Origin: Candidatus Poribacteria bacterium
Lineage (GTDB): Bacteria > Poribacteria > WGA-4E > WGA-3G
Length of the DNA: 64,000 nucleotides
Direction of reading: 5' to 3'
NCBI GenBank assembly: GCA_965197475.1
Contig: CBDANF010000002.1
Location: 192,001 to 256,000 of the forward strand
The notes beneath the pieces were generated by a model. It made no database searches. It saw only the letters and a program-made list of their open reading frames with translations, and was not told the DNA's origin. Every line of letters starts with the position of its first letter. Position 1 is the first letter of the stretch. A program made the translations under genes and the position numbers. Shown piece by piece: positions 6,710-52,095 of the stretch.

Positions 6710-6713
6710 AAGC

Positions 6714-14300: not shown

Positions 14301-14449
14301 CAAATATCGCCAACCTCATATTTTCGATTAGCACCGTCATGCGGATCAGCGTTAAAAGGGATGAGTCTAACACTTTCTCCCGTCTCTGTAATTGCGCCAA
14401 TACACGCACCGCTCCCCATTCGTGTTTTCGCAACAATTAGAACTCTCAT
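11354..14449 (-). CDS. recQ: RecQ DNA helicase with an N-terminal ~210-aa dual-OB-like domain and three HRDC domains
   Basis: [52 protein letters not shown], Zn site CRR...CGMCDNC, three HRDC copies. Extra N-terminal domain begins [20 protein letters not shown]. Confidence 0.9.
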
Positions 14450-14934: not shown

Positions 14935-15494
14935 ACTGAATCAGGGCGTTTCTTCCGCGAGTGAAACGTCTCCTCCCCAAACAGATCCATCTGCCCACCC
15001 GTAATACGCTCAATAATCTGCTCCTGAGTCATCTGCTCACTGTTTTCATCAATATGAATCACAGGTAAATCCTGAGTCGTGAGGGTTGCACTAATCAGTT
15101 TACATCGATGGCAATGCTCCGGCTTCTCCTCGCTACACATAAGTGCCACGCACTGTTGTTGCAAAAAGGCGTTGTGGAGACGTTTAATACCACGCTGATA
15201 AAATTCCGCATTCTGAACTTTCTCGTAATCAACCATTCCGTTGACGTAACACGTTTCATCATCAGGTTTGCCACCGAGTGAATCTCCCATAAACACATAG
15301 CGAATACCTTGCTGTTCTAATTCATTAGCAAGCGGTTTTTTAGAGAATTCCGGTTTATAGCGTGAATACGGAACTGAACGGACATCAATGAGAAAAACAA
15401 TCTCATACTGGCGAAGCACCTCAATGAATTCCGTTATCGAACGGCTGCCATAACCTATCGTATAGATTGGGATAGTGTCTGTTGTTCTTTCCAT
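14931..15494 (-). CDS. DUF488 family protein
   Basis: IYTIGYGSR, LIDVRSVPYSRY-x-P, LGG-x-P, LMCSEEKPEHCHR. ATGA overlap with the next gene. Confidence 0.85.
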   Translation of the reverse strand: MERTTDTIPIYTIGYGSRSITEFIEVLRQYEIVFLIDVRSVPYSRYKPEFSKKPLANELEQQGIRYVFMGDSLGGKPDDETCYVNGMVDYEKVQNAEFYQRGIKRLHNAFLQQQCVALMCSEEKPEHCHRCKLISATLTTQDLPVIHIDENSEQMTQEQIIERITGGQMDLFGEETFHSRKKRPDSV

Positions 15495-29017: not shown

Positions 29018-29657
29018 TGTTTCTAAATGCCTCTAAATCTGCAATACGTCTTAACGCGTCACTGCTAACTCGTCTATAATGTTGGATAGCGAGATCTATG
29101 AACATATCATAGAAATCAGTAATATCCCGATTCCAATCAATTTCCTCCCAAACTTGGTTAACTGTGTAATTAAGCCGTATTTGTCCAGTACCAAGATTTT
29201 TAATTCTGTATGCATCCTGAGGAAATAAAATAAAAGGTGCTACACGGATATATACAAAATCGCGTTTTTCACTCTGGGAAGATAATTTGTTGTGTCCAAA
29301 TTCTGCGATAAGGAACATCCCATTATCATTTGCCAGAAATTTCAACAAATTACCAACAGCACAAATCCCACCATCAGAGTACCGAGTTGAATCTAGGTCC
29401 TTAGTTTTAACATCAATTCCAATGATTCTATTTTCAAACTGTAAAGCAAAATCAAAGATGGTACGTCTTCCTGGTCGTTCTAACGCAGGATATCCAAGAT
29501 CTGAACACATCTGATCCCAATTATCAGCTATCTTTTTTTCAATCATTGCTCCAAAAGCTCGAGAATCTTCGCGTGCTGCTAACCCCGATGTTAGTTCTTC
29601 AGAAAAAATCTCAGATAGTTTATCTTCTATTTGACTGGATATTTCCTTTAGATCCAT
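28983..29657 (-). CDS. Putative Type II restriction endonuclease
   Basis: FDF...IGIDVKTK PD-(D/E)xK-like motif and NLGTGQI. Overlaps the MTase start. Confidence 0.6.
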   Translation of the reverse strand: MDLKEISSQIEDKLSEIFSEELTSGLAAREDSRAFGAMIEKKIADNWDQMCSDLGYPALERPGRRTIFDFALQFENRIIGIDVKTKDLDSTRYSDGGICAVGNLLKFLANDNGMFLIAEFGHNKLSSQSEKRDFVYIRVAPFILFPQDAYRIKNLGTGQIRLNYTVNQVWEEIDWNRDITDFYDMFIDLAIQHYRRVSSDALRRIADLEAFRNNGYKHFSFNRR

Positions 29658-29822
29658 AAAATTCCTCCCCTACCATTTATTATAGTCAATTTATTAGTAT
29701 GATATTACAATTATGCCAACAACCGAGATAGTTGGGATAGTCGCAATAACCTCATGTTACAATGTTAGTATGTATTTTATCACTTATAAATATATTAATC
29801 AACTTGTTAAATTTCTTTTGGC

Positions 29823-29852
29823 TTGACCTTTTCAGAGCAAATATGGTACTAT
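29823..29852 (+). promoter_or_regulatory. Putative promoter for the 30072 methyltransferase
   Basis: TTGACC, 18-nt spacer, TACTAT with a TG extension. Confidence 0.35.
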
Positions 29853-29894
29853 TTGATAACTAACGTGAGTTCGATATAAGCATTTTTGGGAATT

Positions 29895-29919
29895 GGTGCG
29901 GTTAGGAAACCGCACCTAC
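29895..29919. repeat. REP-like palindrome
   Basis: ggtgcggttaggaaaccgcacctac; same family as 20267-20291 (inverted) and 62504-62527. Confidence 0.8.
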
Positions 29920-30071
29920 CGCTGTTATGTGAGTAGAATAGTAGAATTCAAAGCATTAAGAACTTCATACCTCTTACACCGAACTCACGTTACTACTTGT
30001 AATGGCAGAAGTTTGAAGGGTTTTCCGCACACCGTAATGGCACTTATGGATAGTGAAAGGCAGATCATGCA

Positions 30072-30920
30072 ATGGCAGCAATAAAAACAGACCTTTATCT
30101 TGGAGATTGTTTAGAGGTCCTGTCCAATTTTGACACTGATTCATTTGACCTGATTGTAACTTCTCCTCCATACGCGGACCGGCGATCTAAAACTTATGGC
30201 GGAATCAATCCTAATGAATATGTGAATTGGTTTATACCTCGCGCTGAGCAATTTTTAAGGGTTCTCAAGCCATCCGGCACATTTATCCTGAACATCAAAG
30301 AGAAAGCTGTTAACGGAGAACGGCATACCTATGTTATTGAGTTGATACTTGAAATGAAAAAACAGGGATGGTTGTGGACAGAGGAGTTTATCTGGCACAA
30401 GAAAAACAGCTACCCGGGCAAGTGGCCGAATAGGTTCAGAGATTCTTGGGAAAGATGTATACAGTTTAACAAAACTAAGAAATTCAATATGTATCAGGAT
30501 GCGGTAATGGTGCCGATGGGTGACTGGGCAGAGAAAAGGTTGAAAAAGCTTAGTAAGACAGATCAAAGTCGAGATACGTCCAAAGTAGGGAGTGGATTTG
30601 GAAAGAACGTATCAAATTGGTTAGACCGAAAAATGGCGTATCCGACTAATGTTTTACATCTCGCAACGGAAACTGGAAATCGAAAACATAGTGCCGTTTT
30701 TCCGAAGACGTTACCTGAATGGTTCATCAAGTTGTTTACGAAAGAAAATGATTGGGTTCTTGATCCGTTTGCAGGTTCCGGAACGACTTGCCAGGTTGCC
30801 CAAATGTTGTTGAGAAATTCTGCTGGTATTGAAATTTTTCCGGAGTATTATCAAGTGGCAAAGGAGAATATTACGCCGACACAATATAAGATTGAGGGCA
30901 GCATATGTGCTACTGCTTGA
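30072..30920 (+). CDS. N4-cytosine/N6-adenine DNA methyltransferase (beta class)
   Basis: TSPPY (motif IV) precedes H-x-A-x-FP and LDPFAGSGTT (motif I). Confidence 0.92.
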   Translation: MAAIKTDLYLGDCLEVLSNFDTDSFDLIVTSPPYADRRSKTYGGINPNEYVNWFIPRAEQFLRVLKPSGTFILNIKEKAVNGERHTYVIELILEMKKQGWLWTEEFIWHKKNSYPGKWPNRFRDSWERCIQFNKTKKFNMYQDAVMVPMGDWAEKRLKKLSKTDQSRDTSKVGSGFGKNVSNWLDRKMAYPTNVLHLATETGNRKHSAVFPKTLPEWFIKLFTKENDWVLDPFAGSGTTCQVAQMLLRNSAGIEIFPEYYQVAKENITPTQYKIEGSICATA

Positions 30921-34414: not shown

Positions 34415-35563
34415 ATGAAACGACTTACACTAACATCGTTAGGACAGATCCCTGAAGCCGATATCTCCTTTGGGGACTTGACTGTGTTGGTAGGTGAACA
34501 AGCGAGTGGAAAGAGCATTCTACTCCAACTTGTAAAGTTAATTTTAGACGTAGGCGATATTACGCAAACTCTCAAAAAACACGGTTTTGATTGGCACGAG
34601 AAATCTGAGGATTTTTTATCCCTCTATTTCGGTGAAGGGATGGAAGGGATTTGGGACAATACCACGACGAAAATCACCGTTGACGACGTGGACTTTGATC
34701 TTGACAAAGAATTATCCAGAAAAGGTAGAAAAAAATCGGAGAGACTCTTCCTGATTCCTGCACACCGAGTAATGACACTCAAGGATGGATGGCCACGTGC
34801 TTTTACGGATTACGCTCTTGGTGACCCTTACGTTGTTAAGCAATTTAGTGAACACCTGCGTCTATTACTAGAAACGGGTTTGGGTTCTGGTAAAGGTGAC
34901 ATCTTTCCGCAGGCAGGCCGTATGAATAAAGCGATACGCGACACAATTGGGGAGCGTATTTTTGGCGGAGCTAAAGTTCAACTGGATCGTTCAGGTTTGC
35001 GTAAACGAATTGTCTTAGAGGTTGAAGGTAGTCATCTACCGTTTATGGTTTGGTCAACTGGTCAGCGGGAATTCGTGCCTCTGTTGATGGGACTGTACAG
35101 GTTAATGCCTGCGGGAGGCACGCGAAAGAAAAATAACCTCAATTGGGTTGTTATTGAAGAACCGGAAATGGGCTTACATCCTCAATCCATTTCAGCACTG
35201 CTCACTGTTATTTTTGAGTTAATGCGGCGCGATTACAAAGTAATTGTTTCTACTCATTCGTCGCAAGTTCCTGAGCTAATATGGGCGGCACAATTACTTG
35301 TCAAATGGAATGTTGATTCAACAACCCTATTAAAATTATTGGATTTGAATACCACTTCCTTTTCCACGGAGTTAGCAGAAACAGTATTTTGGAAAAAAAC
35401 TTTCAAGACCTATTATTTGTCTCCACATAACGAGGTTAAAGACATTTCAACATTAGATGCTGAAGATCCGGACGAAGCAGTTTCAGATTGGGGTGGACTC
35501 ACGATATTCAGCACAAAGGTCGCTGATGTCATTTCTGAAGCTATGTGGAGAGCAAACCTATGA
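34415..35563 (+). CDS. ABC-type (AAA_15/AAA_21-like) ATPase
   Basis: GEQASGKS, signature-like STGQRE, VVIEEPEMGLHP, VSTHS. Confidence 0.85.
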   Translation: MKRLTLTSLGQIPEADISFGDLTVLVGEQASGKSILLQLVKLILDVGDITQTLKKHGFDWHEKSEDFLSLYFGEGMEGIWDNTTTKITVDDVDFDLDKELSRKGRKKSERLFLIPAHRVMTLKDGWPRAFTDYALGDPYVVKQFSEHLRLLLETGLGSGKGDIFPQAGRMNKAIRDTIGERIFGGAKVQLDRSGLRKRIVLEVEGSHLPFMVWSTGQREFVPLLMGLYRLMPAGGTRKKNNLNWVVIEEPEMGLHPQSISALLTVIFELMRRDYKVIVSTHSSQVPELIWAAQLLVKWNVDSTTLLKLLDLNTTSFSTELAETVFWKKTFKTYYLSPHNEVKDISTLDAEDPDEAVSDWGGLTIFSTKVADVISEAMWRANL

Positions 35564-36018
35564 GTTTTGTTGATGCAGTTAGGCACACTCTCGAAATTGC
35601 CGAATGCCTAAAAGCAGGGCTGCAGGCACTGGGTTCTAATCGTCATAAAGTCAAAGCAGATGCAACGCGCAGCATAACAGGAAGCGTTGATTTAGACGAA
35701 TGTCTTGCGCAACGTTATCCAAATGCGACTCGTTGGGACTATGTATTCGGTTATAAAGATCGGCTTTACTATGTTGAAGTTCATCAAGGGCGCGCAAGTG
35801 AAATAGAAAACGTCATAGCAAAATTAGATTGGTTAAGACAATGGCGCAAACAGGCAGCAACAAACCTTGAAAATTTGAAGGATCGGAGCACCTATCACTG
35901 GATTTCCACCGGAAAAATTGAATCAGCATTCGCTAAAAATAATAGATATCGTAGAATCTTGCGTCAAAAGAGTATCTTTGGACCAGATCGTATGTTGAAC
36001 GTTGATTCTGTTCCGTAA
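35560..36018 (+). CDS. Small hypothetical protein, possible PD-(D/E)xK-fold nuclease partner of the ATPase
   Basis: ATGA overlap with the ATPase stop; RWDY...YYVEVH...K motif. Confidence 0.55.
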   Translation: MSFVDAVRHTLEIAECLKAGLQALGSNRHKVKADATRSITGSVDLDECLAQRYPNATRWDYVFGYKDRLYYVEVHQGRASEIENVIAKLDWLRQWRKQAATNLENLKDRSTYHWISTGKIESAFAKNNRYRRILRQKSIFGPDRMLNVDSVP

Positions 36019-37966: not shown

Positions 37967-38016
37967 GGATCAAGTTAAGTACAAAGCATGTCCTCATCAG
38001 CATTTTCGATTAGGAA

Positions 38017-38250
38017 TTGAATGGCATCGCTTCATCAAGTTATGATGCCATGCTGCTTTTGGCAAACGCGATTGAACAGGCCCAATCAACGGATCCTGTT
38101 GCGGCTCGCGATGCGTTGGCCGCAACAAAAGACTTTCAGGGTTCAACCTATATTTCTCATTACGATGAGAGCCAGCATCCCGACAAAAATCTGGCAATCC
38201 TGACGGTTGGCGATGGGAAATCCCAAACCTATAAAATCGTTGAGCCGTAA
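38017..38250 (+). pseudogene. 3' fragment of a LivJ-type ABC substrate-binding protein
   Basis: YDAMLLLANAIEQAQSTDP...RDALAATKDFQGST is the typical C-terminus of the family; the N-terminal region is absent. Confidence 0.65.
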
Positions 38251-38334
38251 TTCTCTGGTAGAGCTGTGCAAAGGAAGGGTTTAACGCCTTAAGCCTTCAC
38301 AGCTTCCTGACACACTTTCTTGGAGGAGATAAAG

Positions 38335-39435
38335 ATGTCAACTTATCGTGCAGGCGTAATCGGTTTAGGACGGATGGGGAGTACTTTTGATGACGAGATC
38401 ACGCAGGGAGGATCACTTTTTCTTCCTTATTGTCATGCTCCAAGTTATCAGGCTTCACCAAAAGTGGAATTGGTCGCGGGTGCGGATCTACATGCTGAAC
38501 AAGCCTCAATTTTTGGCAAACGTTGGGGATTAGGGTCAAAACATATCTATGGCGATTATCGTGAAATGTTAGAGAAGGAAAATCTTGATCTTGTAAGTAT
38601 TTGCACGACAGCACGGGTACGTGCGACTATTGTGCAAGATGTGGCGCGTGCGGGTGCAAAAGGGATATGGGCAGAAAAACCGATTTCGCTCAGTCTCGCC
38701 GAAGCAGATACGATGGTGGATGTCTGCCGAGAAAACGGTGTCGTAATGGCAATAAATTGTGCAAGACGGTGGAATCCTTTCTTTAGCGAGGCAAGAAAAC
38801 TTATTGACGAGGGTGAAATTGGTAATGTGCTGCAGGTAACTGTGTATGCACAGTGCGGTCTCTCGCATAACGGCAGCCATGCCATTGATATTCTACGTTA
38901 TATGGCAGGTGGAAATGTAGAATGGGTTTTCGGTGAGATGCAGTCCGATGAAGCCGCTGCAGGTGAAAACGACTTGATGGGAAACGGCTACATGGTATTT
39001 GATAACGGTGTGCGTGCATATCTCCGAAGCACAGCGTGTGGCGCAGCACCTTGGGAGGTGGATGTCATCGGCACAAGCGGACGTATCCGATCAATCAACA
39101 ATGCCGAGACGTTTGAACTGATTCGTATGGTTCCCGGTGGACGACGTGGACGCGGCGTTCCTGCTACGTGTCCGTTCCCGTGGCCCGTGCGGATGCAAGG
39201 CATGGGATTGACCATTGTTGACGACATCATCAACGCTATTGAAAACGGAGGTTCGCCTAAATGTTCAGGTGAAGATGGTCGTGCTGCGCTTGAGGTTGCC
39301 ATTGCACTTCGAGAATCGCATCGCCGTGGTGGTGTAAAAGTGGACTTGCCGATTGAAGATCGAAGTCTGCGTATTCTTTCGTCTGAGATTCGGGGTGATG
39401 ATACACCTGCACGGGTTAGACGGATGCGGAGTTGA
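38335..39435 (+). CDS. Gfo/Idh/MocA family oxidoreductase
   Basis: VIGLGRMG, AEKPIS, GSHAID. GGAGGAG RBS before ATG 38335. Confidence 0.92.
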   Translation: MSTYRAGVIGLGRMGSTFDDEITQGGSLFLPYCHAPSYQASPKVELVAGADLHAEQASIFGKRWGLGSKHIYGDYREMLEKENLDLVSICTTARVRATIVQDVARAGAKGIWAEKPISLSLAEADTMVDVCRENGVVMAINCARRWNPFFSEARKLIDEGEIGNVLQVTVYAQCGLSHNGSHAIDILRYMAGGNVEWVFGEMQSDEAAAGENDLMGNGYMVFDNGVRAYLRSTACGAAPWEVDVIGTSGRIRSINNAETFELIRMVPGGRRGRGVPATCPFPWPVRMQGMGLTIVDDIINAIENGGSPKCSGEDGRAALEVAIALRESHRRGGVKVDLPIEDRSLRILSSEIRGDDTPARVRRMRS

Positions 39436-39474
39436 AATAACTTATATGTGTATTACACAAAATAAATTTTTAAT

Positions 39475-39503
39475 TTGAAAATATATTGGAAATATGGTAT
39501 ATT
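39475..39503 (+). promoter_or_regulatory. Putative sigma70 promoter of the STAND pair
   Basis: TTGAAA, 17-nt spacer, TATATT with a TG extension. Confidence 0.45.
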
Positions 39504-39558
39504 TACAGTAAGTTTTACTTTTCGCACTAAACTTTAAAGTGTCAAAAATAGAGTAGTT

Positions 39559-42500
39559 ATGCGTATACAATTAATTCAACAGAAGGTTCCAATTGGAAGC
39601 CAAATCATACTTACGCTAAAAAATGATGAGGAAGTCTCAGGACTTCTTACGGAAATCGGGCTTGATTATATAACTCTGGAAATAGCAAATCGTCAAAAAA
39701 CAATTTTGGCGGACGCAATCTTAATGTTTGACGTACAAGGAGAGGACAGTGAAGTTGAAGCAACTAATTCAACAGATGTTAATACAGTATCAACCGATTC
39801 GGTTCCAGAGCAGGTTGAAACACCTGACTCAACAGATGCTAACACAGAAGCAATAGACCCGGTTGAAGCATCAGAGTCTTCAGACGTTAAAACAGAGCCA
39901 ACAGAACCAGTTCCAGAGCAGGTTGAAGCCCCTGACTCAACAGATGCTAACACAGAATCAATAGACCCGGTTCCAGAGCAGGTTGAAGCATCGGAGTCTT
40001 CAGACGTTAAAACAGAGCCAACAGAACCAGTTCCAGAGCAGGTTGGAGCCTCGGAGTCTTCAGATGCTAAAACAGAAACATCTGACTCAGTTCCAGACCA
40101 AGTTGAAGCATTTAATCCAACAGATGCTGATACGGAATCAACAGATCTCGTTAATCCTGAAGAACAGGCTTCTGAAAAACTAACTGAAATCGTGACCCGA
40201 TATAATACTGAAATCAATATCTCCTCAATTGAATTGGAAGTGCCAGATTTTACCTTTCCCGCAAAAGAGTTGACAAGTTGGCAAAATACAGATATTGCTG
40301 GCAAGTGGTTACAAATCAAGAATAAGTATGAGAACGCTCAAAAAATCAATGAATTAAGTACTAAATTTGGTAGAATTCAACCACTTCTAATGGAAGTTAA
40401 ATCTTTAGTTCGGCGTTTCCCAAATTCTCCATCGCTAAAACGTGTTACTGCCTATTTTTACGCTGTATCAGATGATTGGCAGGAGGCTATCCAGATTTAT
40501 AAAGAGGTGGCGATTACTTCTGAGGACGCGAACGATTGGTTTAATGTTGCAGTATCAGCGTTGCAGCTGAATAAAAAAGAACTCGCTTGTTATAGTTTGG
40601 AAAAATACTTCAATGGCATTTCTGTAATTGATAAGTTAAATGCGTGGTATATCTATGTCAATCTCGTAGGGAAATTTAACAACCTTTCTGCCTTCCGTGA
40701 ATTGTGTAAAAAAGGCGAAAATGATGTTGCTGAAAATGAAATTGAAGTTTTATTGGATGCGGCTATATATCTCTTTAAGAGGAAGGTTACCACAGAATTA
40801 GCGGTAGAAATTGTACAAAAACGAATCAAAGGCGAACCCATTGCATCTCTGCTTATAGAAGTCTCTCAAAAACTTGGTGGTCAGTCCACTGAGTCCTACA
40901 AGCGATTCTTGTCAGAGTTCATGAACGATATGATTGCTTCGGAGAAAACAATACATCCGATTTCTCCTGAATATCCTGAACGCATTGATACCGTAAAAAA
41001 GAGCCTTCATCATATACCATCACAAAAACATGACTTAGAAACTCAAGAGGAAGACCCTTATACGATCGCAAAGCGTGCTGATTTAGTGGAAAAAGACCTT
41101 GAGAAAGCGGAACAGTATTATCGAGCGTGCATTAGCCAAAATATCAAGCATGACAGTGCAATTAAGGATTTGGCAATGGTTCTTGTTCGGTTAGGGCAAC
41201 CAGAGGAAGCAGTAGATTTACTCGAAAAAAATAGAGAAAAAGTTATAGATGAACAGTCTATAGATAACGTTTTAATTTCTGTGTACCCTGCTGCGGCTCA
41301 ATATGATAAAGCAATTAACCTGCTTAACAATGCTCTCAAGCAAACCCATGATCAGGAACGTAGACTGCAAATTCGCATGCAAATCGCTAGTGCTTATATT
41401 AAGCTAGAAGATTATGTAAGTGCTGAAAAGCAATTCCATCTTGTTCAGAAACTACGCCCACAAAATATTACTGTACAAAGGAATCTTGCCTTTTGTCTCT
41501 CAAAACAGAATCGCTATGATGAAGCAAAGCAGATTTTAGATATAATTCAGAGTACGTCCCCTGACGCGAAAACTACGGAGTTATTAGAAGCAATTGAAAG
41601 GGCAAAGAGGACAGGCGAATTTATACTTGATGAGGACGCAATCATTGAGGTTGAAACTGTCCTTTCATATTTGTCAGGTGAATTAAGTGACTTCGCACAT
41701 TTTTTCCTAGATCGGTGTGCATTTGATGGTGTCTCACCTGAACGGGTTAACGAGGGGAAATACACGGGTTCTGAAAAAGATTTTCGGTATGATATGGAAA
41801 GGCTTGAAGATATTGCCAAGCAACTAGGGACCAAGCGACCTCGTGATAGAAGTCATTATTATCTCTCGGCTGCTAGAATCTACTTTGATCTGGGTGGTAA
41901 TCAGAATGTTTTCTATCGTTACCTCTGCCGAAGTTTTGCTTCAAGAGGTGATGCTGCGGTGAGTGAAAATAAACACTTGGATACTGTTAGAGAATGGTAT
42001 TGTGAGGCATTAACTGCTTATGATGGCGACAAAACACGACGTAAAAGGGATGAGCAGGATGCAGTTAATTCACTCGTTAGATATCTATATTCAACATTGG
42101 GGAATGCACATATTGATTTAACTCCGAACACCCGCACTTTCAATGAAGTAGTGAGAAACGTTATTAATAATCATCCAGACAAGAAAAAAGTTTTTGATTT
42201 TATTGCGTATCTTATTTTACACAGTCGGTTTGCTGCTGACAGGCTTTTGAACCGTCTATACGATAATGATACTCTAAGAACAATTGCAGTAGATTATTTA
42301 AAAGAAATGGATATACTGGTACCTGATGTGATGGATCGGCTCGTGGATTTTGTCCATCCTTGGAATGAATTACGAAATGGGAAATTCAACGAAGCTCATA
42401 ACATATCAGACAAATTGCGATTATTGAACAATTTTGATCTGACACCGTCATGGTTAGAAGACAACATTAGATTCACAAAAGACATTCGGACAAGTTTGTT

Positions 42501-44316
42501 TTTTGAATTAGATCAACAACGTGTTGGAGCATTGCAGAGAATCCTTGAAAGCGCATTGGAACTTTGCAAACAGGTAACGTTTGAAGAACGACAACACTGG
42601 TGTTCTCAACTTCGTAGTTTTTGTCAGGATCTACTTAGAGGTATTGAAGAAAGCCCAACAAGAGTCTCTGTAGAAGATGTTTATCCTATTACTGAGGTCA
42701 TCCAAGAGAAAGTGAATTCATACCTCGACGAACTTTACGAGACCTCAAAACCTCAACTGACACTCAGACTACCTGTGGAATCTTATGTCCCTGATACTAA
42801 CCGACAAATAGAAGTTCAGATTGTTTTAGAAAATGAGAGAGGCCGAAGTCCCGCTGAGTCGTTAGAGTTAATCGTTCAGGCGGACGAAGCATTTTTTGTG
42901 GTGACAGAATCGGAGATTAAGCAGAATGAATCTTTACGTGGAGGCGAACAATCAATTCTGACAGTCCCATTACGCGTAACTCCGGACGCTTTACAATCCC
43001 AGACCTTTTCTTTATCCCTTTGTGCTCAATATCGTACTCGGACGAAAGAACAAGTACAAACTCCAGATGAGAATCTTTCCATTCGCCTTTATTCAGAAGA
43101 TGAATTTGAGAAAATTGAAAACCCTTATGCTGCTTATGCTGAAGGTGGTATTGTTGGCGATACGAATATGTTCTTTGGGCGGGAAGAACTTATCCGAAAC
43201 ATTGCACAAGCTATTCAAGAATCTCAATTGCAGAGCAAATGTGTCTTGGTCTTTGGACAAAAAAGATCTGGAAAGTCTTCGGTGTTGTATCACCTAAAAG
43301 AGTTGCTCCAGGAAGATAGAGAACTTCTTATCCTTGATTTAGGAAACATGTCTACGCTTCTGGATCAACATGCCCAAACCTCACTCTTGCACCAATTTCT
43401 CAACGGTATTTTGAGAGCATTTGAACGTGCGATTCAGCGAAAACAACATGAGGGTTTAAGTCCCCTTGAACTTGCTATTCCTGGTAAAGAATTCTACGAT
43501 CATCCCGCACCTCTGCAACTTTTTGAAGATACCTTTGTGAAACTAAAGGATTTGACTAACGGGCAAGCAGGCCAAGAAGATTGGCGTGGCACAAGGGTTG
43601 TCCTCCTGATAGATGAATTTCAGTACATCTATGACCCGATCATTGAAGGCAAAATTCCTGACTCGTTCATGAAAAATTGGAAAGCTTTGCTACAGGCGAA
43701 TTACTTTAGTGCTGTGTTGGTAGGACAAGATGTGATGAAGAAGTTCAAACTCCGATTTCCCAATGAGTTCGGCACAGCGCAGGATGAGCGAGTCACCTAT
43801 CTTAAGGAAGAAGATGCCCGGAAACTTATTGATGAACCAATACGCATTGATGGAAGGCAAGGGGACAGTCGCTACCGGGAACAAGCAATCGAACGTATTG
43901 TAGAACTCACTGCAAGAAGTCCATTCTATATTCAAATTATTTGCAACCGTCTCGTTGACTACATGAATGTTAAACATGCGGGACTGGTAACAGAGGCGGA
44001 TGTAGAACAAGTCAAAAATGAACTAATACACGACGTAAATGCACTTGGCCTAGACAAATTTGATAATCTCATCAATTCGGGAGATACATCACCAGATGCT
44101 ATTTCAGATGAAGATGCTCTAAAAGTTCTGAAAGTTATCGCTGACAATAGTAATAGGACAGATCCTTGTCATCGCGATCGAATCGTTTGCCAAACAAATT
44201 CACCAATTGATACAATTCTGGATGATCTTGTGAATCGGGATGTTGTTAAACGCCGCGATCAATCTTATCAAATTCAGGTTGGCCTTTTCAAAGAGTGGCT
44301 TGCTGTCAACGGATAA
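39559..44316 (+). CDS. Large TPR-containing protein with C-terminal STAND-type P-loop ATPase
   Basis: N-terminal Sm-like beta domain, acidic repeats, TPRs (AIKDLAMVLVRLGQPEEAV, NLAFCLSKQNRYDEA), beta-sandwich, then NPY...FFGRE...GQKRSGKSS...LLIDEF...SPFYIQ. Confidence 0.8.
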   Translation: MRIQLIQQKVPIGSQIILTLKNDEEVSGLLTEIGLDYITLEIANRQKTILADAILMFDVQGEDSEVEATNSTDVNTVSTDSVPEQVETPDSTDANTEAIDPVEASESSDVKTEPTEPVPEQVEAPDSTDANTESIDPVPEQVEASESSDVKTEPTEPVPEQVGASESSDAKTETSDSVPDQVEAFNPTDADTESTDLVNPEEQASEKLTEIVTRYNTEINISSIELEVPDFTFPAKELTSWQNTDIAGKWLQIKNKYENAQKINELSTKFGRIQPLLMEVKSLVRRFPNSPSLKRVTAYFYAVSDDWQEAIQIYKEVAITSEDANDWFNVAVSALQLNKKELACYSLEKYFNGISVIDKLNAWYIYVNLVGKFNNLSAFRELCKKGENDVAENEIEVLLDAAIYLFKRKVTTELAVEIVQKRIKGEPIASLLIEVSQKLGGQSTESYKRFLSEFMNDMIASEKTIHPISPEYPERIDTVKKSLHHIPSQKHDLETQEEDPYTIAKRADLVEKDLEKAEQYYRACISQNIKHDSAIKDLAMVLVRLGQPEEAVDLLEKNREKVIDEQSIDNVLISVYPAAAQYDKAINLLNNALKQTHDQERRLQIRMQIASAYIKLEDYVSAEKQFHLVQKLRPQNITVQRNLAFCLSKQNRYDEAKQILDIIQSTSPDAKTTELLEAIERAKRTGEFILDEDAIIEVETVLSYLSGELSDFAHFFLDRCAFDGVSPERVNEGKYTGSEKDFRYDMERLEDIAKQLGTKRPRDRSHYYLSAARIYFDLGGNQNVFYRYLCRSFASRGDAAVSENKHLDTVREWYCEALTAYDGDKTRRKRDEQDAVNSLVRYLYSTLGNAHIDLTPNTRTFNEVVRNVINNHPDKKKVFDFIAYLILHSRFAADRLLNRLYDNDTLRTIAVDYLKEMDILVPDVMDRLVDFVHPWNELRNGKFNEAHNISDKLRLLNNFDLTPSWLEDNIRFTKDIRTSLFFELDQQRVGALQRILESALELCKQVTFEERQHWCSQLRSFCQDLLRGIEESPTRVSVEDVYPITEVIQEKVNSYLDELYETSKPQLTLRLPVESYVPDTNRQIEVQIVLENERGRSPAESLELIVQADEAFFVVTESEIKQNESLRGGEQSILTVPLRVTPDALQSQTFSLSLCAQYRTRTKEQVQTPDENLSIRLYSEDEFEKIENPYAAYAEGGIVGDTNMFFGREELIRNIAQAIQESQLQSKCVLVFGQKRSGKSSVLYHLKELLQEDRELLILDLGNMSTLLDQHAQTSLLHQFLNGILRAFERAIQRKQHEGLSPLELAIPGKEFYDHPAPLQLFEDTFVKLKDLTNGQAGQEDWRGTRVVLLIDEFQYIYDPIIEGKIPDSFMKNWKALLQANYFSAVLVGQDVMKKFKLRFPNEFGTAQDERVTYLKEEDARKLIDEPIRIDGRQGDSRYREQAIERIVELTARSPFYIQIICNRLVDYMNVKHAGLVTEADVEQVKNELIHDVNALGLDKFDNLINSGDTSPDAISDEDALKVLKVIADNSNRTDPCHRDRIVCQTNSPIDTILDDLVNRDVVKRRDQSYQIQVGLFKEWLAVNG
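39765..40150 (+). repeat. 60-bp (20-aa) intragenic tandem repeats
   Basis: gttccagagcaggttg at 39802, 39910, 39970 and 40030, with a variant at 40090; units PVPEQVEASESSDVKTEPTE and PVPEQVEAPDSTDANTESID. Confidence 0.9.
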
Positions 44317-44326
44317 ACGGAAAAAC

Positions 44327-45853
44327 ATGAATCCATTTGCTAATTACGGTAGAATCGTCCATGGTGACCGTTTCATTGGACGTAAGACAATTGTGAACAA
44401 TATCGAAAACCGGATTATTCATCCCGATAATCCGGGGAATCTTGTGATCATTGGGATGCATCGTATCGGCAAAAGCAGCCTGGCGCACAAAGCAATCATT
44501 GAGCAAAAAGAAAACCTAACAAAGAAAGGGGTACTTCCGATTTGGATGGGGGTTGCTTCATACGATCTGTCCTCAGATTTCTTCCACGCGCTGGTAAAGA
44601 GATGTGTTCGGGAAATGAAGAGGTTAGATTGGCTATCAGGCACGGTTCAAGACTTAGCTGACTACGCATTGGAAACTGAAGATTCATGGGACGAAATTAA
44701 AGATTTTTTTATAGAAGTTAAAGAAATCGGGTATCGGATGCTCCTTATTCTTGATGAATTTGATCACGCGCGACATCTCTTCAAAGGAAACACGGCCTTT
44801 CAACGTTTACGGGAACTTGCTGATTACCCAGATTACGGGTTTTCTCTCGTTCTCACATCCCGTCGAAGTATTAGAGATATCGAACTTTCGGCTGGATCCT
44901 CGTCCCCATTTCATAACATTTTTCAAGTTCAACGTTTGGGAATGTTTAATGACGAGGACTTAGAAATTTATTTTTCCAGATTTTCAAATATTGGAATACC
45001 AATTTCTGATGAAGACAAAAAACGTGTGTTGTTCTATTGTGGAGATCATCCCTATCTGCTTGAGATGTTAGGTTGGGAAATAGTTGAGAGGTATCGTCAA
45101 AATCAAGAACAGGAAATTGATGTTGATAAAGCTGCTGATGCTATTATTCAATCTGTCTTTGAGCATTATGACGACATGATTCGGTTACTGCGGGAGGAAA
45201 AAACACTTAATAAACTCCTCCAAATTTTGCTTGGTCCTGTCATTGATGTCAAGCCAACTGATGTAACTGAACTTCAAAACTACGGTTTGATTAAACTTAC
45301 CGAGAAAGATCATGGAGATGAAAAGCACCCTGAAAAAGGTACTTATGTTGCCTATTCAGAACATTTCCACGATTATCTTAAACTGCATGAACGTTCAACA
45401 GAATTTACTGATGATGTATGGCCAATCTGGAGGAAAACTGAGAAAGCATTGCGTGAAGTGATTACAACCACCCTGTTTAAGACGTATGGAGATGACTGGA
45501 TTAAAGAGTTAGAGAAAGGACGTTCTAACTTAAAGAAAATTTTCGACGAGTGTCGACAAGCACAACGGAAAGAAGAAAATTCTTTTGGAGACAGAGCGTC
45601 ACAGAATTTGATTGATTTCACCTATCCTGCAGATTTGTTTACGATTATTTTCGCAAAAGGATTGTGGCAACCATATTTTCAACCACTCTTTGGACATAAT
45701 CCAAATTACTGGGAGCAACGCAAACAGTTATTGACAAAGTGTAGAAATCCCTTGGCTCATAATCGTGGTGAGATACTTAAACCCCATGAGCGTAAGACTC
45801 TTGAAGCATACTGTGATGAAATTCTGGGAGTATTGTCTGATTATATAGAATAA
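44327..45853 (+). CDS. STAND-type ATPase with C-terminal Swt1-like HEPN domain
   Basis: Start placed at ATG 44327. NPF...FIGR, GMHRIGKSS, LILDEFD, HPYLL; C-terminal TEKALR...W...RNPLAH (R-x4-H). Confidence 0.8.
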   Translation: MNPFANYGRIVHGDRFIGRKTIVNNIENRIIHPDNPGNLVIIGMHRIGKSSLAHKAIIEQKENLTKKGVLPIWMGVASYDLSSDFFHALVKRCVREMKRLDWLSGTVQDLADYALETEDSWDEIKDFFIEVKEIGYRMLLILDEFDHARHLFKGNTAFQRLRELADYPDYGFSLVLTSRRSIRDIELSAGSSSPFHNIFQVQRLGMFNDEDLEIYFSRFSNIGIPISDEDKKRVLFYCGDHPYLLEMLGWEIVERYRQNQEQEIDVDKAADAIIQSVFEHYDDMIRLLREEKTLNKLLQILLGPVIDVKPTDVTELQNYGLIKLTEKDHGDEKHPEKGTYVAYSEHFHDYLKLHERSTEFTDDVWPIWRKTEKALREVITTTLFKTYGDDWIKELEKGRSNLKKIFDECRQAQRKEENSFGDRASQNLIDFTYPADLFTIIFAKGLWQPYFQPLFGHNPNYWEQRKQLLTKCRNPLAHNRGEILKPHERKTLEAYCDEILGVLSDYIE

Positions 45854-45871
45854 AACATCTCAAAGAACCGT

Positions 45872-46321
45872 ATGCCACAAAAAACAGCATTCGTCTATCA
45901 CTCAGACTACCTTAACCACGACACAGGTCCCGAACACCCTGAACGGTCTGACCGACTCATAGCCAGCCTTGCAGCACTCCAACAAAGCAATGTTTGGCAG
46001 CAGCTGCACCACATTGGCCCTACACCCGCGACCGTTGAGCAGATCACTTACGCACACAACCCCGGTTATAGCGAACATATCCGTCAATACTGTGAGTCGG
46101 AAGTTCCACTCACCTACGACACGCCTGTCGGACATGAATCTTATGATATTGCCCTGCTTTCAACGGGTGGGGTGTTATGTGCAGCAGAGGCAGTGATCAC
46201 AAAGAAAGTGAAAAACGCCTTTGCGATGGTTCGTCCACCAGGACACCACGCGACGCCGGGACAGAGCATGGGGTTTTGTCTATTCAACAACATCGCCATT
46301 ACAGCACGTTATCTTCAATGA
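45872..46321 (+). pseudogene. Histone deacetylase family protein, truncated after about 149 aa
   Basis: HPE-x-x-x-RL, RPPGHHA...MGFCLFNN. The Zn-binding D-x-D-x-HHGNG half is not found in the window, and the stop coincides with the start of the IS island. Confidence 0.8.
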
Positions 46322-46400
46322 ATTGTGCTACTACAAACGCCTAATCGGGCTTACAAATCCTTCAACAATTTTGAGTTAGCTCATACTTTCAAAACCACAT

Positions 46401-47062
46401 AATACCATTTCTGAATAATTATATTCCATTTGCGACTTTCGTGAAATATTTAAAATTTGTGATTTGGGCAATAGCTGCCTTCGTATACTTTCTCAAGATT
46501 TGTGTGATTTTGTCCTGCATTTCCTCTATTGACCCCAATGTGTGCTGAAACAATTTGGCTTTGATGTCTTGCCAGAGTCTTTCGATCGGGTTCAACTCTG
46601 GACTATAAGGGGGTAGAAAAATCAAGGCGATGTTGTCAGGAAGTTGTAGCGATTTCGCCTGATGAAAACGACCATTATCAAGCACAAGGACATTTAGCGT
46701 CTCTGGAAAAGTCTTTGCTAACTCATCAATGCATACTTGGAAACAGACACCATTGAGCCAGGGCATTTCAAGGAAGAAACTTTCTCCTGTTATCGGTTCC
46801 ACAGCTCCGTATAGATAAAGGCTCTGGTAAGTGTGATCAACATTGGCAATCGGTTTAACACCGCGTAAGGTGGGACGCCGAGACGACACAGGCAAAAGAC
46901 CACACCTTGACTCGTCTTGGCAAAAAAGTCGGACGCTTTGAAAAGAAGATGCCTTCTCCGAAATCACCTCCTCAACTTTGGTAGCGAAGTTAGCAACGAA
47001 CGCATCACACGCTACATCGTTTTTTTTATGACTTTTGCGAGGCACTTTGAGTTTCGCATTCC
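46401..47062 (-). mobile_element. IS630 family element, 5'-truncated (DDE domain ORF 46419-47045)
   Basis: FCQDESRCG, LDNGRFH, LPPYSPELNPIERLW. The N-terminal HTH region is missing upstream of AKLKVPRKSH. Confidence 0.85.
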
Positions 47063-48124
47063 ATTCAGTGGTTGTGTTGAATTATGATGCTGCAATAGGT
47101 GGAAATCCTACTAACCTTGTAACATAAAACACAAAAATTATCAAGTGTTTACATGGCGCGTGCCTTGAATGTGTCAAACCAGCATCTTCTGATACTCTTA
47201 AATGGTGATAATTAAAGAGATATACTTTTCTCTTTTAATTTAGATGGTTTTGAATACATTTATTTCTGCTTAATTTCACCCCATAAAGTAGCGACTTTGT
47301 CTTTAGGATTTATACTATATCTAATCTGTGAATTAGATATTAATTTAGGATCGCCTACCGCAGGATGATCACATGATGCACCATCAACACTACTATCAAT
47401 TACCATTTTTAATACTTCTGCATCAAAAGGTATATAAAAATTAACCTCTTCATAAGGATCCTCACCAGTTAATAATCTGGATTCGTATACCTTCTTTCCA
47501 TCGATCTCAAATCTAAATATACAGCTACCGCCTACAAAACAACTTTTATTTTGATTTTTACCTATCTCAAAATCTCTATCATTAGTCATCCCAATATATC
47601 CTTCAAATGCGATATATTTATTTCCTTGCAAATTATATTTAAGAGATGAGGCTTTTGGATGATTAGGTGGAGATAGAGAAAGACCTCTTTCAAAAGTAAC
47701 ATTTCTAATAATAATAGGATTACCGTTATTAGTTTTATTATCTGAAATAGATTGCGATCCCCAACCATTTTTATATTCACGACTGGGATTAAAAGGTTTT
47801 AGACCATCTTCATCAGGTAAAGTCTTTTTTCCTGAATTAATATTAAGATATACAACATTTTTAGAAGTATCTTCTTTAATAGTTATCGGTTCTGAATCTT
47901 TTTCAATCCCTAAATCTTCATTTTTATTACGTATAGGAGTTTGTTTATCAACCAACTCATCTTTAAATCTTGGAGGCATAATAAAATCGTATTTATGAAA
48001 ATTAAAAGCACCAAAAATATCCATAGTCATAAACGTTATATGATTCTTTCCTATAAGTTTACTTCTATTTATTCTAAGATCTATATTAGTATTTTTACCA
48101 TTAATATATTGCCAACCTAATACT

Positions 48125-49369
48125 TGTACTGCCATCGGAAATTCGGGCCACTCTCTAAGACAAGATTATGGTATAATATCCATCTCCTTGAAAGGAGTAT
48201 CCGATGGCGAAACGAAAACGAAGAAACTTCACCCCCGAGTTTAAAGCCGAAGTTGTTCTTGAGGCTCTCAGCGTTGAAAGTTCCCAAGCAGAAGTGTGTC
48301 GGCGACATAACCTCAGCGATGAACAACTTTCAAAGTGGAAGCGACAGCTTCTTGAAAAAGCGGCGACCCTCTTTGAACCCGCTGATAAACAGTCTGATGC
48401 CTCTGCGGAGCGGATCGCCCAACTTGAGCAACTCGTTGGGCGGTTGACCCTGGCACTTGACATCCAAAAAAAAGCCTCAACTTACTTGAGCTAACCCCGA
48501 TGGAGCAACGAGAAATGGTTACGGCATTACGGACAGACTTTTCGGTTCGGCAGATATGTGAGACACTCGGTTTCAACCGAAGCAACCTCTATTATCACCC
48601 CAAGCAGGCCCCGTGTGAAGCGGGCCTCCAGGATGAAATAGAGACGTTATCTTTGCTATATCCAACATACGGATATAGGCGTCCCACACAGTTGTTGGTG
48701 CGTAACGGATACACCATCGGGTATAAACGTGTTGCCCGATTGATGAAGTCCGCCAACCTCTCGGTTTCTGTCAAGCGTGTCTGTCAAACCACGACATCCG
48801 TTGCGGGTGTGCGTCCCTGGAGCAATCGCCTTGAAAACCTTGATGTCTCCCGATGTGATCAGGTCTGGGTGGGCGATATCACCTACGTCCGCCTCAAAGG
48901 ACACTTTATCTATGTTTGTCTGCTCATGGATGTCTTCACTCGCATGATCAGAGGGTGGTATATCAGTCAACACTTGACGCAATCTCTAACGTTGAAACCT
49001 TTGGAGACAGCATTATGTCAAAATGTCCCAGAGATCCATCATTCTGATCAAGGCGTTCAATATCTTTCAAATGCGTCCATCTCACTGCTTAGGCATCATG
49101 GGATTGAGATTTCAGTCGCCCGGAGAGGGTGTCCTTGGGAGAACGGATATGCTGAAAGACTTATCCGCACGCTCAAGGAAGAAGAAGTTCATCTCAACGA
49201 CTATGAGGACATCCACGAAGCGAGAGCCCGCATTGGGCATTTTATTACACAAGTATATAATCACAAACGCCCTCACTCTGCGTTAGGGTATTTGACACCT
49301 GTGGAATTTGAGCAAAAAAACTTGTCTTAACTTTGCTAAATTTTGGTCTGAATAAACGGTAGCACTTCA
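48125..49369 (+). mobile_element. IS3 family element (orfA 48204-48494, orfB 48500-49330)
   Basis: TG...CA ends with imperfect TIRs and 3-bp TSD ACT. A8G slippery run near 48466 with orfB in the -1 frame. WVGDITY, HHSDQG-x-QY, ENGYAER motifs. Confidence 0.95.
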
Positions 49370-49796
49370 ACTAATATATTATTATCCATAACTATAACTA
49401 TAACTTGATATAAATCATTTGGACTTGTAATATTTGCTTTAATACTAATTATATTAGGTTCTATTTCTTCAACATTAAATACTTGATTTATCTTTGGATG
49501 TTGCCATGTTATTACTCGATTGGCATTAAAAAAATAATGTTTATGTAACCATCTAGCTTCGTATTCTGATAATCCTTTTCCTGGTCCCATAAAAGAATTT
49601 ACAGCTTCAGTATGATATAAACCAAAGGTATGTCCTATTTCATGTGCAATAAGTCTAACCATATCTGTATCTGCATTCTCTGCAAGATAACATGAACCTC
49701 CAAAATTAAAATTATAAAAAGGCCATCCAACTCCCCATTGACAGCATCCTTGATGCAAATTAATTGTATTAATACCTCCCACAATAAAAACATGTA

Positions 49797-50782
49797 GGCT
49801 CATGTAAAAAGTAAGTGCTATTTTTTCAAAGTTATGTTAGCGTGTTACCTATGGACTTTCCAATACAATCTCTCATGGATGAAGAAAAAACTCAAGCGTG
49901 GGTGTTGGATCATTTCCACCCTCAAGGGCTGTGTTGCCCAAAATGCCAAGCGAGCGTGGCGGAGGCACGCAAGTTCCGTCCGACTGAAACAAGTGGTCTA
50001 CAAGTGTATCGCTGCAAACACTGTGAGAGCATCTACAACCTCTATACCGGGACGGTCTTTGCTGGCACGCAGTTTCGTCCCTCACAGGTCGTTCTGCTTT
50101 TGCGCGGTGTCTGTCAAGGTGTTTCAAGTGCACAACTCGGGTGTGAACTGGGTCTAAGTCGTCAAACCGTTCTTTCTATAAGACGTAAACTCCAAACTTC
50201 GGCAGAGCAGATACAACCCGAAGCTGCTTTACCTGATGCTGAAGTCGAAACAGATGAGATGTTTCAAAACGCCGGTGAAAAAGGCGATAAGCACGTTGAT
50301 GCTTCGGATCCGCCGCGTCGGCGTGGCAATAAACGCAGGGGACATGGGACTTATGACAATGATCGTCCGCCTATTGTTGGGACGAAAGGTCGCGAAAGCG
50401 GTCTCCTGAGATTACGTGTTGTGCGGCACACCGATTCTGCGACGCTTTCAACACACGTTCATCAGTGGACGTTGCCGACTTCAACGGTGTATACGGATGG
50501 TTGGCGTGGCTATAACCGTATTCAGCGCGCCCGTGAGATTGTTCTCCATAAGGATGGCGAGTGGGCAAGAGACGCAGACGGTGATGGTCTTTACGAGATC
50601 CATACAAGGACGATTGAAGGTGCCTGGACGACGCTGCGAAACTTCCTTCGTCCCTTTCGTGGCGTTCATAAAAAGTTCCTCGCCGGTTACGTCGCAATCT
50701 GTGAGTTCGTCATGAATCTAAAAGCTGTCAGTGTTGATTTTATAGCAAAACTCGTCAAAAGCACTTACTCTTGACATGAGCG
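49797..50782 (+). mobile_element. IS1595 family element (transposase 49815-50774)
   Basis: TIRs ggctcatgtaaaaagtaagtgct and cgctcatgtcaagagtaagtgct, 9-bp direct repeat AAACATGTA. Zn-finger cysteines, VETDEMF, VYTDGW-x-x-Y, H-x-x-TIEG-x-W. Confidence 0.93.
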
Positions 50783-51366
50783 AAACATGTATATTCTTTG
50801 AATTCTTTAATACTTGAGGTATTTCAGGACTTATTTTATCCCATGTATTTGATTGATATATCAATGACGGATGATCACCATCTACTACATTTATTTTTAC
50901 ATTTCCATTTACTTCCCTTTCTAACTTAAAAGTTTGATTTCCATAACCATATCTGAACATTTCTTCCGTATATAGTTCCTGAACATCATTCATCCATCCT
51001 CTAATTTTATTAAATGGAATATTGTTTATATTATTAGGTTTAAAATAAATTGTTTTTACCAAATAATCTGCGTTAACTTGTATTGATACTATCATTAAAA
51101 CTATAGTTAATAATAGCAATCTTAATTTTTTCATAATAACTCCCTATATCAATTAATTATATTTTGTTTGAGGATATTGGTTAAATAATGATGCAAGAAT
51201 TAGCGGGATACCCTCTGAACCGCGCTGCATCATATTTCAGTTGCGGTAATGATAACACTTATAACGAGAGTTGTCAATGAAAAAATCAGACTGATTTTCA
51301 TTGACTTATATGCCTAAAACTTGTATCCTCATTGAAACAACTCATTTCTACTCACAGGAGGATACC

Positions 51367-52095
51367 ATGAAAGCGTGTCCAAGATGTCAACATATTCACT
51401 TCGTCAAAAACGGGTTCGTCAACGCAAAACAACGCTATAAATGTCCAAGTTGCCACTATCAATTCACACGCAAAACACCACGAGGTAAACCCCAGACACA
51501 TAAAACCCTCGCTCTGCTCTTGGACTGCCACGGTATTTCAATGAATGCTATCTCAAAACTCTTCAACATTCATGTAACAACTGTTCTCAAATGGGGACGC
51601 TCCTATGCGAAAAAACACGCCCCGAAACGGACATTTTCACCCGGATCCACCGTAGTTTTGGAGCTTGATGAAATGTGGCATTATATCGGAAAGAAGAAAA
51701 ACAAACTTTGGATATGGAAAGCACTTGACAGGAACACAGGATACCTCATAGATTGGCAATGCGGCGGACGCAACACAGAAACCCTTGAAAAACTGACGCA
51801 TCGCCTCAAAGCCTTGAATGTCAAAATGTCCTACACCGACAAGTGGCAGGTGGACGAATCCATCCTACCTGCTTCAAAACATGTTCAAACGAAAGCGGAG
51901 ACACATCGCATTGAACGCAACAATTGCTTGATGCGGCACTGGTTCGGCCGGTTCAAACGTCCGTCCATTATTGTTTCAAAAAGTGTGGAGATGGTGAACC
52001 TAACGATTGCCTTGTTCGCACGATTTCGTGTTAATGGAGACGTGTTTGACATTTTAAAACTTGGCGGAATGGAAACCATGAATATCATTAGTTAG
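51367..52095 (+). mobile_element. IS1 family transposase (InsA and InsB in one frame)
   Basis: CP-x-C...KNG...QRYKC-x-x-C, ELDEMWHY, LWIW-x-A, YTD-x-W, IERNN...R. IS1-like ends GGTAATG (51245) and CAATACC (to 52103). Confidence 0.88.

Follow-up and report, generated by a model that had tools for sequence, protein, structure and literature searches.

The 64,000-nucleotide stretch of a Candidatus Poribacteria genome analyzed here (assembly GCA_965197475.1, contig CBDANF010000002.1, positions 192,001 to 256,000 of the forward strand; hereafter, the window) contains two adjacent genes that each encode a STAND ATPase, and it raises the question of what two such ATPases, encoded side by side, do together. 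An initial annotation made from the sequence had proposed a two-component immune system, with a sensor bearing tetratricopeptide repeats (TPRs) and an effector bearing a HEPN domain on separate ATPases. The coordinates were confirmed, with both genes on the + strand and 10 nt apart. The pair proved to be a conserved, co-inherited unit related to a two-gene system predicted in 2021, and the reading to which a probability of about 50% is given is that it may act as a two-protein switch against invaders, probably phages. Its features, with models graded by the predicted local distance difference test (pLDDT) and profiles given as hidden Markov models (HMMs), are the following.

39559..44316, + strand: gene 1, 1585 aa; STAND ATPase at the C-terminus, putative sensor or scaffold; stop codon TAA at 44314-44316
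39559..39738, + strand: likely Sm/Hfq-like (SH3-type) small beta-barrel, aa 1-60 (profile matches and AlphaFold2 model)
39739..40155, + strand: disordered acidic linker with 20-aa (60-nt) repeats, aa 61-199 (repeat analysis and model)
40156..40944, + strand: TPR-like helical block A, aa 200-462 (AlphaFold2 model, family HMM)
40945..41055, + strand: disordered stretch at the position of a cold-shock (OB-fold) domain in many relatives (cold-shock domain HMM)
41056..41628, + strand: canonical TPR block B, aa 500-690 (Pfam TPR_19, 59 bits; VIA Z 12-14 to TPR proteins)
41656..42744, + strand: family-specific helical repeats (aa 700-927) and long four-helix bundle (aa 928-1062) (AlphaFold2 model)
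42745..43098, + strand: Ig-like beta-sandwich, aa 1063-1180 (AlphaFold2 model, pLDDT ~90)
43114..44313, + strand: STAND ATPase 1 with winged-helix end; Walker A GQKRSGKSS, Walker B LLIDE (Pfam nSTAND1)
44327..45853, + strand: gene 2, 508 aa, ATG at 44327; STAND ATPase 2 and HEPN effector
44327..45400, + strand: MNS-like STAND ATPase 2 with winged helix, nSTAND2-related (model pLDDT 95; fold matches)
45416..45841, + strand: Swt1-like HEPN putative RNase domain; R473 at 45743-45745, H478 at 45758-45760 (Pfam HEPN_Swt1, conserved motif)

The same series of ATPase motifs was present in both proteins, as had been noted initially: NPY..FGR..GQKRSGKSS..LLIDEF..SPFY in gene 1 and NPF..FIGR..GMHRIGKSS..LILDEF..HPY in gene 2. 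The two ATPases are 23% identical (BLASTP, E 0.01), and their profile-profile comparison gave a probability of 98% (E 3e-14). Both show the architecture expected of STAND/Orc-Cdc6 AAA+ proteins, a P-loop domain with Walker A and B motifs followed by helical and winged-helix domains. They belong to one STAND lineage, and their nucleotide-binding motifs are conserved.

A scan of GTDB genomes with an ATPase-2 alignment, and therefore seeded from gene 2, returned 92 relatives, the best 80 of which were kept and gave 79 loci. In 72 of these loci, gene 1 immediately precedes gene 2: a gene-1-type ATPase was placed there by script in 71 (median gap 21 nt), and at L058 the genes overlap by a few bases. 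Two other loci were uninformative, the contig ending within ~300 nt upstream of gene 2. The conservation of the motifs in 57/57 of the gene 2 loci is partly by construction because the scan patterns contain the Walker motifs. The 57 pairs placed on trees carry 16 phylum labels (two archaeal-labelled short contigs are possibly misbinned), and several phyla are scattered, Chloroflexota needing 7 changes, 3 of them forced by starred branches, in a quick IQ-TREE analysis. The FastTree trees of ATPase 1 and ATPase 2 were congruent, with a patristic Spearman correlation of 0.93 (best value in 500 permutations, 0.28) and 14 common splits among the 20 and 21 supported ones, with one conflict; linkage alone predicts such agreement. 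The two genes are conserved and inherited together as a unit, and the pairing that the initial annotation had seen at one locus recurred across genomes. No recurrent third gene was found across the loci beyond the lineage synteny of the flanks. Local duplications were also observed, namely a second, diverged copy of the pair (L014:16088-21050) and an additional stand-alone ATPase 1 gene located 3' of gene 2 (L016:12401-13627).

For gene 2, 672 homologs were retrieved, with 336 50%-identity clusters at E<=1e-30; the close ones that bear a name come from Ca. Poribacteria. The best fold match to the model of ATPase 2 was 2qen (Z 20.3, root-mean-square deviation 4.6, 314 aligned), followed by 2fna/SSO1545 (Z 19.2, 4.7, 307 aligned) and then by Orc/Cdc6 and NLR resistosomes; 2fna was also the top sequence-profile match (E 2e-7). 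These best structural matches, SSO1545 (2fna) and PAB2304 (2qen), which we take to belong to the MNS clade of STAND, are stand-alone proteins of ~350 aa made of an ATPase and a winged helix-turn-helix (wHTH), with no HEPN. The Walker motifs of the window copy are intact (GMHRIGKSS, LILDEFD). The Walker G and K were kept in 117/117 aligned homologs, D in 112 and E in 109; in alignment A2, 12 of the 32 ATPase-2 sequences lack the Walker B Glu. ATPase 2 has an invariant arginine, R162, where ATPase 1 has an invariant Lys; this arginine may correspond to the finger that Kaur et al. (2021) describe as conserved in both proteins of their operon.

The C-terminal domain of gene 2, which starts ~5 residues past the ATPase-wHTH, is a Swt1-like HEPN domain and, as such, a predicted RNase. 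The window copy falls under the Pfam HEPN_Swt1 cutoff (24 vs 27.5 bits); matches at E<=0.01 were obtained in 50 of 57 family members, two of which passed the cutoff when re-scored (31 and 38.8 bits). The intact HEPN motif claimed in the initial annotation was confirmed: of the 117 homologs aligned, 116 have R473 and 113 have H478. No TPR match was detected in the window gene 2 by the Pfam scan. In relatives, this dyad is exchanged for other, putatively toxic effectors. Among 30 ATPase-2 relatives hand-picked from the 150 listed (the genomic partner was seen for L016 only), Schlafen domains were found in five, protein kinases in three and EAD7 in one, with an added cold-shock domain in six; no GT4 effector was found in the 30 scanned. 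A tandem HEPN occurs in two ATPase-2 relatives, and ATPase 2 is effectorless at three loci (L066, L068, and L070). The proposed division thus held: the TPRs belong to one ATPase protein and the effector to the other, and effectors are exchangeable on ATPase 2.

Residues 690–1585 of gene 1 yielded 643 homologs, those named being mostly Ca. Poribacteria, and its front end (residues 1–1185) was modelled with AlphaFold2 (mean pLDDT 82.6, predicted template modelling score 0.50). The N-terminal barrel consists of one helix and five strands (block pLDDT 83–95), a topology that fits Sm/Hfq/Lsm, and its family profile matched Hfq/Lsm chains (MJ1435, E 0.001; Hfq, E 0.002). The Sm-like assignment of the initial annotation is likely but not proven, because the SH3-like barrel of biotin ligase (BirA C-terminal) scores equally (E 0.0009); an atlas search gave DUF6897 as a lead (score 0.85). 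The acidic repeats that had been reported were found as a 60-nt unit at 39747-40154, with aa 62-197 disordered in the model; the linker contains 29% D/E, and its length in relatives is 13–144 aa. The TPRs pass the Pfam cutoffs. Between helical block A and these canonical TPRs, a gap (aa 465-497) is disordered in the model. With the cold-shock domain HMM, such a domain was located at this gap in 31 of the 59 long gene 1 proteins derived from the loci and in 22 of 119 database homologs; PF00313 was present on 8 gene 1 homologs among the matches listed. The window protein (P0001) gave no match to this HMM. The architecture given in the initial annotation was confirmed, but this domain of many relatives had been overlooked.

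The median identity over the 50 loci compared was 0.48 for the helical repeats and 0.41 for the four-helix bundle. The beta-sandwich, already named in the initial annotation and modelled here at aa 1063-1180, is the best-conserved non-ATPase part of gene 1 (median identity 0.54); a sequence-profile search found no solved relative for it. Fold searches with residues 1–1185 returned TPR proteins only, and are therefore no test of the Sm, bundle and Ig parts. ATPase 1 passes Pfam nSTAND1 (36 bits, cutoff 27.1), and its Walker residues G, K, D and E are invariant in 57/57 aligned sequences. Variants of gene 1 were also seen. Two or three cold-shock domains are present at L065:4091-9976 and L043:4642-9978, gene 2 of L065 ending in a non-HEPN domain. 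At six loci (L010, L011, L017, L022, L035, and L038), gene 1 is cut in frame to the Sm domain and the ATPase (500–660 aa); the breakpoints differ, several lineages are represented, the TPR region is mostly or wholly gone, and the copies end at ~9970 of the locus (6253 in L011).

The view that the pair matches no described system was not supported as it stood, since Kaur et al. (2021; PMC8195603) had reported an operon of two STAND genes arranged in this order; comparisons with this and the other papers cited here refer to the portions of them that were available. That operon, with HEPN or GT4 effectors, was predicted to form a toroidal counter-invader hetero-multimer. Its first gene encodes an unknown N-terminus, a STAND and a wHTH, and the second an MNS-like STAND, a wHTH and a HEPN; a variable effector on the second STAND is common to the nSTAND2 operon and the window pair. 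However, the effector STAND of nSTAND2 is described as inactive, whereas Walker A and B are intact in both ATPases of the window pair; TPRs precede the HEPN in the nSTAND2 HEPN form, but are not found in gene 2 of the window family; and the nSTAND2 effector proteins measure 530–770 aa in the full-length entries, compared with ~500 aa. The nSTAND2 hosts listed are almost all proteobacteria, while the window family spans 16 phylum labels. Matches to Pfam nSTAND2 (E<=0.01) were obtained in 17 of 57 gene 2 relatives; its cutoff (24 bits) was passed by two of the six re-scored, both actinobacterial (28.8 and 26.6 bits), over profile positions 112-231 only. Because the window gene 2 gave no Pfam nSTAND2 match, keeps the active-site motifs and has no TPRs, the pair is, judging from its sequence, a relative of the nSTAND2 two-gene system and not a member of it. 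It is a real, widespread and new variant of the predicted nSTAND2 paired-STAND kind, marked by intact ATPases, a newly resolved Sm-TPR-(cold-shock)-Ig front end and exchangeable ends.

Other known proteins share parts of this design. The Avs proteins (Lee et al., 2026; PMC13581612) have in common with the pair a STAND ATPase, a TPR solenoid and a toxic effector, but are single chains with C-terminal sensors, whereas the window pair consists of two chains with an N-terminal TPR region. In the portion available, the sequences that the survey took for analysis were only those C-terminal to the NTPase, and an N-terminal TPR region such as that of gene 1 therefore lies outside its sensor analysis. 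Fusions of the Swt1 HEPN, predicted to be mostly active, to STAND-ATPase, TPR and S1 were described by Anantharaman et al. (2013; PMC3710099) and contain the same domain set (Swt1 HEPN, STAND, TPR, OB-fold); in the available text, they have an N-terminal HEPN in a single chain and a two-gene arrangement is not described, in contrast to the two genes of the window family. As to searches of defence models, no Avs model of PADLOC matched either protein, and only a weak match in the HEPN region (PDC-M34B) and a weak mad8 match were obtained; no PADLOC model corresponded to either whole protein, and therefore no named system was assigned. Nothing in NCBIfam scored over the cutoff for the pair. No experimental study of the window pair or of the pair predicted in 2021 was found in the literature searched, most subscription papers being outside its coverage, and "nSTAND2" was meaningful there only in Kaur et al. 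(2021) and in a fungal NLR paper with its preprint. The pair was not described in the portions available of PMC7159879, PMC11090510, PMC10853773, PMC12839542 and bioRxiv 10.64898/2026.10.19.760177.

The joint assembly of the two ATPases suggested in the initial annotation received weak support from structure prediction. The ESMFold2 complex of ATPase 1 with the full gene 2 product scored 0.51, compared with 0.00 for the best of three controls, and the runs agreed in at least 91% of contacts, with a partner pLDDT of at least 81. Of the 157 solved complexes used for comparison, 116 reach the mark, as against 2 of the 215 mismatches; with a score of 0.60 or lower, only 18 of the 157 do, but so do both mismatches.

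HEPN RNases require dimerisation, and in paired plant NLRs sensing and execution are divided between two linked STAND proteins. The plant pairs have an NB-ARC with C-terminal leucine-rich repeats and are usually head-to-head, while the window pair is head-to-tail, operon-like and built on MNS-like ATPases, so they serve as an analogy only. In the proposed switch, protein 1 would be the receptor: an invader protein or ribonucleoprotein would be recognised by its TPR solenoids, aided by the Sm domain and, in many relatives, by cold-shock domains, both of RNA-binding type. Recognition would free ATPase 1 to seed an ATP-bound ring made up of both ATPases. This ring would join the HEPN domains into active RNase dimers; RNA of the cell would be cut and the infected cell arrested, an outcome that would amount to the abortive infection suggested in the initial annotation. 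ATPase 2 would serve mainly as an assembly scaffold for the effector, because many relatives do without the catalytic Glu, which is also eroded in nSTAND2. In favour of this switch are the position of gene 1 just upstream at 72 of 79 loci, the congruent trees, the lack of a recurrent third gene, the exchange of effectors on ATPase 2, the weakly supported complex, the single-chain fusion P0327 described below, the mixing of phyla on the tree, the missing Walker B Glu of some ATPase-2 sequences and the independent prediction of a hetero-multimer for the homologous layout.

A distant form of the pair, linked to type I restriction-modification (RM) genes, was detected in the tblastn search of plasmids. 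In Acinetobacter ursingii, the gene downstream of hsdR encodes an HsdM-HsdS-STAND fusion, with a STAND gene after it.

L080:1017-8782 (NZ_MH220285.1) and L083:5855-10181: RM-linked form; HsdM-HsdS subunit extended by a gene-1-type STAND, with a gene-2-type STAND encoded next

The first gene of this form scored 99.7 bits with the ATPase-1 profile and 25 with that of ATPase 2; the second scored 68 bits with the ATPase-2 profile and 16 with that of ATPase 1. The pairing is therefore lineage-matched. The fusion region had 1169 database matches, and all of the 120 listed have an HsdS domain and an ATPase-1 profile match; it is a large proteobacterial family. The form was found in 3 of 5426 E. coli genomes, and the gene downstream of the fusion was seen only in Acinetobacter and E. 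coli records. No homology was detected between the beta-rich region and bundle of the fusion and the Ig and bundle parts of gene 1 (hhalign probability, 1% and 0.1%), and therefore only the ATPases link the RM-linked and Sm-TPR forms. No description of the RM-linked STAND pair was found in a targeted literature search.

Among the RM-linked proteins, P0398 and P0399 have two tandem ATPase-1-like domains each. A three-gene pPIWI_RE island with a WYL regulator upstream is present on a Microvirga plasmid (L082:3334-19538; NZ_CP069357.1); its PIWI protein (3394 aa) has a C-terminal STAND-like ATPase, and the next gene has an AAA_33 kinase-like domain. It was rejected as the same system, as the ATPase 1 score was only 16 bits and the downstream gene is unlike ATPase 2.

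A broader idea can be put forward tentatively, although we consider it doubtful: the STAND1-to-STAND2 pair might be a portable signal coupler with plug-in front ends and effectors, resembling sensor/executor NLR pairs. Its front ends would be the Sm-TPR-cold-shock receptor or, as an integrated guard, the methyltransferase-specificity subunit of a type I restriction system; its effectors would be HEPN, Schlafen, kinase or EAD7 domains. In the window family, the coupler would respond to an RNA-protein feature of infection, not to a structural protein of the phage, and would act through a mixed ring formed by two STAND ATPases with intact catalytic sites.

Several observations weigh against the sensor-driven switch proposed above. 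The enrichment in defence islands, for which the initial annotation had proposed a test, was not shown: PADLOC matches (1e-8) were obtained for 44 of 262 neighbours vs 13 of 44 other window genes, in a count that leaves out 13 of the 79 loci (same-site duplicates or too short) and 38 of 300 selected neighbours (actinomycete loci L073-L079), takes one window as control and relies on open reading frame calls that are unreliable in high-GC loci. The window pair is flanked by a Gfo/Idh/MocA oxidoreductase and a truncated deacetylase, at a site common to other Poribacteria. Gene 2 is intact in five of the six loci with a shortened gene 1, and it occurs as an orphan at L056, L057, L059, L061 and L070, with no gene 1 in the 3.9–10 kb upstream; four of these five orphans keep the HEPN motif. 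Protein P0327, the natural single-chain fusion counted in favour of the switch (in the order ATPase 2, weak HEPN, bundle, Ig and ATPase 1), may have arisen just once, by rearrangement of copies in tandem. Finally, the complex score could arise from likeness to solved AAA+/STAND rings, because the controls included no cousin ATPase. Some of these points lead to a different arrangement of the same parts, which we regard as rather unlikely: protein 1 would hold protein 2 inactive through ATPase-ATPase contact, as a guard or a toxin-antitoxin-like partner, until an invader factor bound or cleaved protein 1 and left protein 2 to self-assemble and cut RNA. In some plant NLR pairs the sensor represses the executor. 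The six shortened copies are in keeping with this, as the middle of gene 1 has been lost at different breakpoints with the ATPase in frame and, in five cases, beside an intact HEPN gene; the count of in-frame deletions is nonetheless biased, because out-of-frame deletions would be scored differently. The place of the M-S-fused pair downstream of hsdR would suit the guarding of an RM complex. By contrast, the four orphans with an intact HEPN motif have no nearby gene 1 to restrain them.

The pair might instead have no antiviral role and serve as a stress, RNA quality-control or programmed-death module that reads the state of host RNA or ribonucleoprotein through the Sm, cold-shock and TPR domains, a proposal that appears improbable. 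It agrees with the mostly housekeeping neighbours and the absence of enrichment over the window control, with the stable chromosomal sites of the pair within Poribacteria and Latescibacterota, and with searches in which no phage matched the C-terminal part of gene 1 and plasmids (tblastn) gave no match to gene 2 and one distant match to gene 1. On the other hand, the exchange of unrelated toxic effectors, the patchy spread across phyla and the decay, duplication and deletion observed are typical of conflict systems, and so are individual insertions beside defence genes: one copy lies between BREX pglX and pglZ fragments (L044), Cas1 is near L045, a type II RM system near L050 and a DndH-like gene near L063. 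AbiL/PDC-M38-like ATPases adjoin the copies at L015, L031 and L051. Still less probable, in our estimation, is that the two ATPases are co-transcribed but physically independent, each forming homo-oligomers. The weak complex score and the orphan gene 2 copies would allow this, and congruent trees are expected of any linked genes; nevertheless, gene order is fixed and spacing tight across the 16 phylum labels, and the specific pairing is repeated in the distant RM-linked form (99.7/25 and 68/16 bits).

The characterised bacterial NLR-like defence proteins in the available portion of the survey by Lee et al. (PMC13581612) are single chains with C-terminal sensors. A sensor and an effector split over two STANDs, with the sensor N-terminal, would make mixed rings and plant-like pairs testable in bacteria. 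To the nSTAND2 prediction of 2021, the window family adds a relative whose ATPases are catalytically intact and whose front end is resolved. Moreover, the pair is present in cultured non-pathogens (Streptomyces, Micromonospora and Actinomadura), intact examples being those of L074 (Streptomyces coelicoflavus), L075 (Actinacidiphila) and L062 (Micromonospora), while L021 and L048 have versions with a cold-shock domain; the form fused to restriction subunits suggests a possible guard on type I RM.

As to the surroundings of the pair, no structured RNA was found by Rfam in 38000-47000. A promoter-like site at 39475-39503 was discarded, as such sites were at chance level (1 found vs 1.4 expected). 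An ABC-type ATPase and a small protein, candidates PDC-M56A/B of PADLOC, are encoded 3.5 kb upstream (34415-36018), as well as at L004, L008 and L013. Downstream (45872-52095), the deacetylase gene that comes after gene 2 is cut short next to a DDE_3 transposase, and integrase-type, IS1595-like and IS1-like transposases cluster there, one of them between two metallopeptidase fragments. The window also contains RM genes at 4733-7451, 27485-30920 and 58604-62407, comprising a type II methyltransferase-restriction endonuclease pair, two more methyltransferases and one type IIG fusion. A separate AAA_35-type ATPase, a further STAND-like gene, is encoded at 9677-11344. On the - strand, a run of two DUF488 genes and then a Dual-OB/RecQ helicase fusion (11354-15494) gave PDC-M45-like matches and may be a defence operon. 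Additionally, a 1174-aa open reading frame with a strong A/T skew and a DUF4175-like match is present at 16631-20155 and is probably low-complexity or repetitive.

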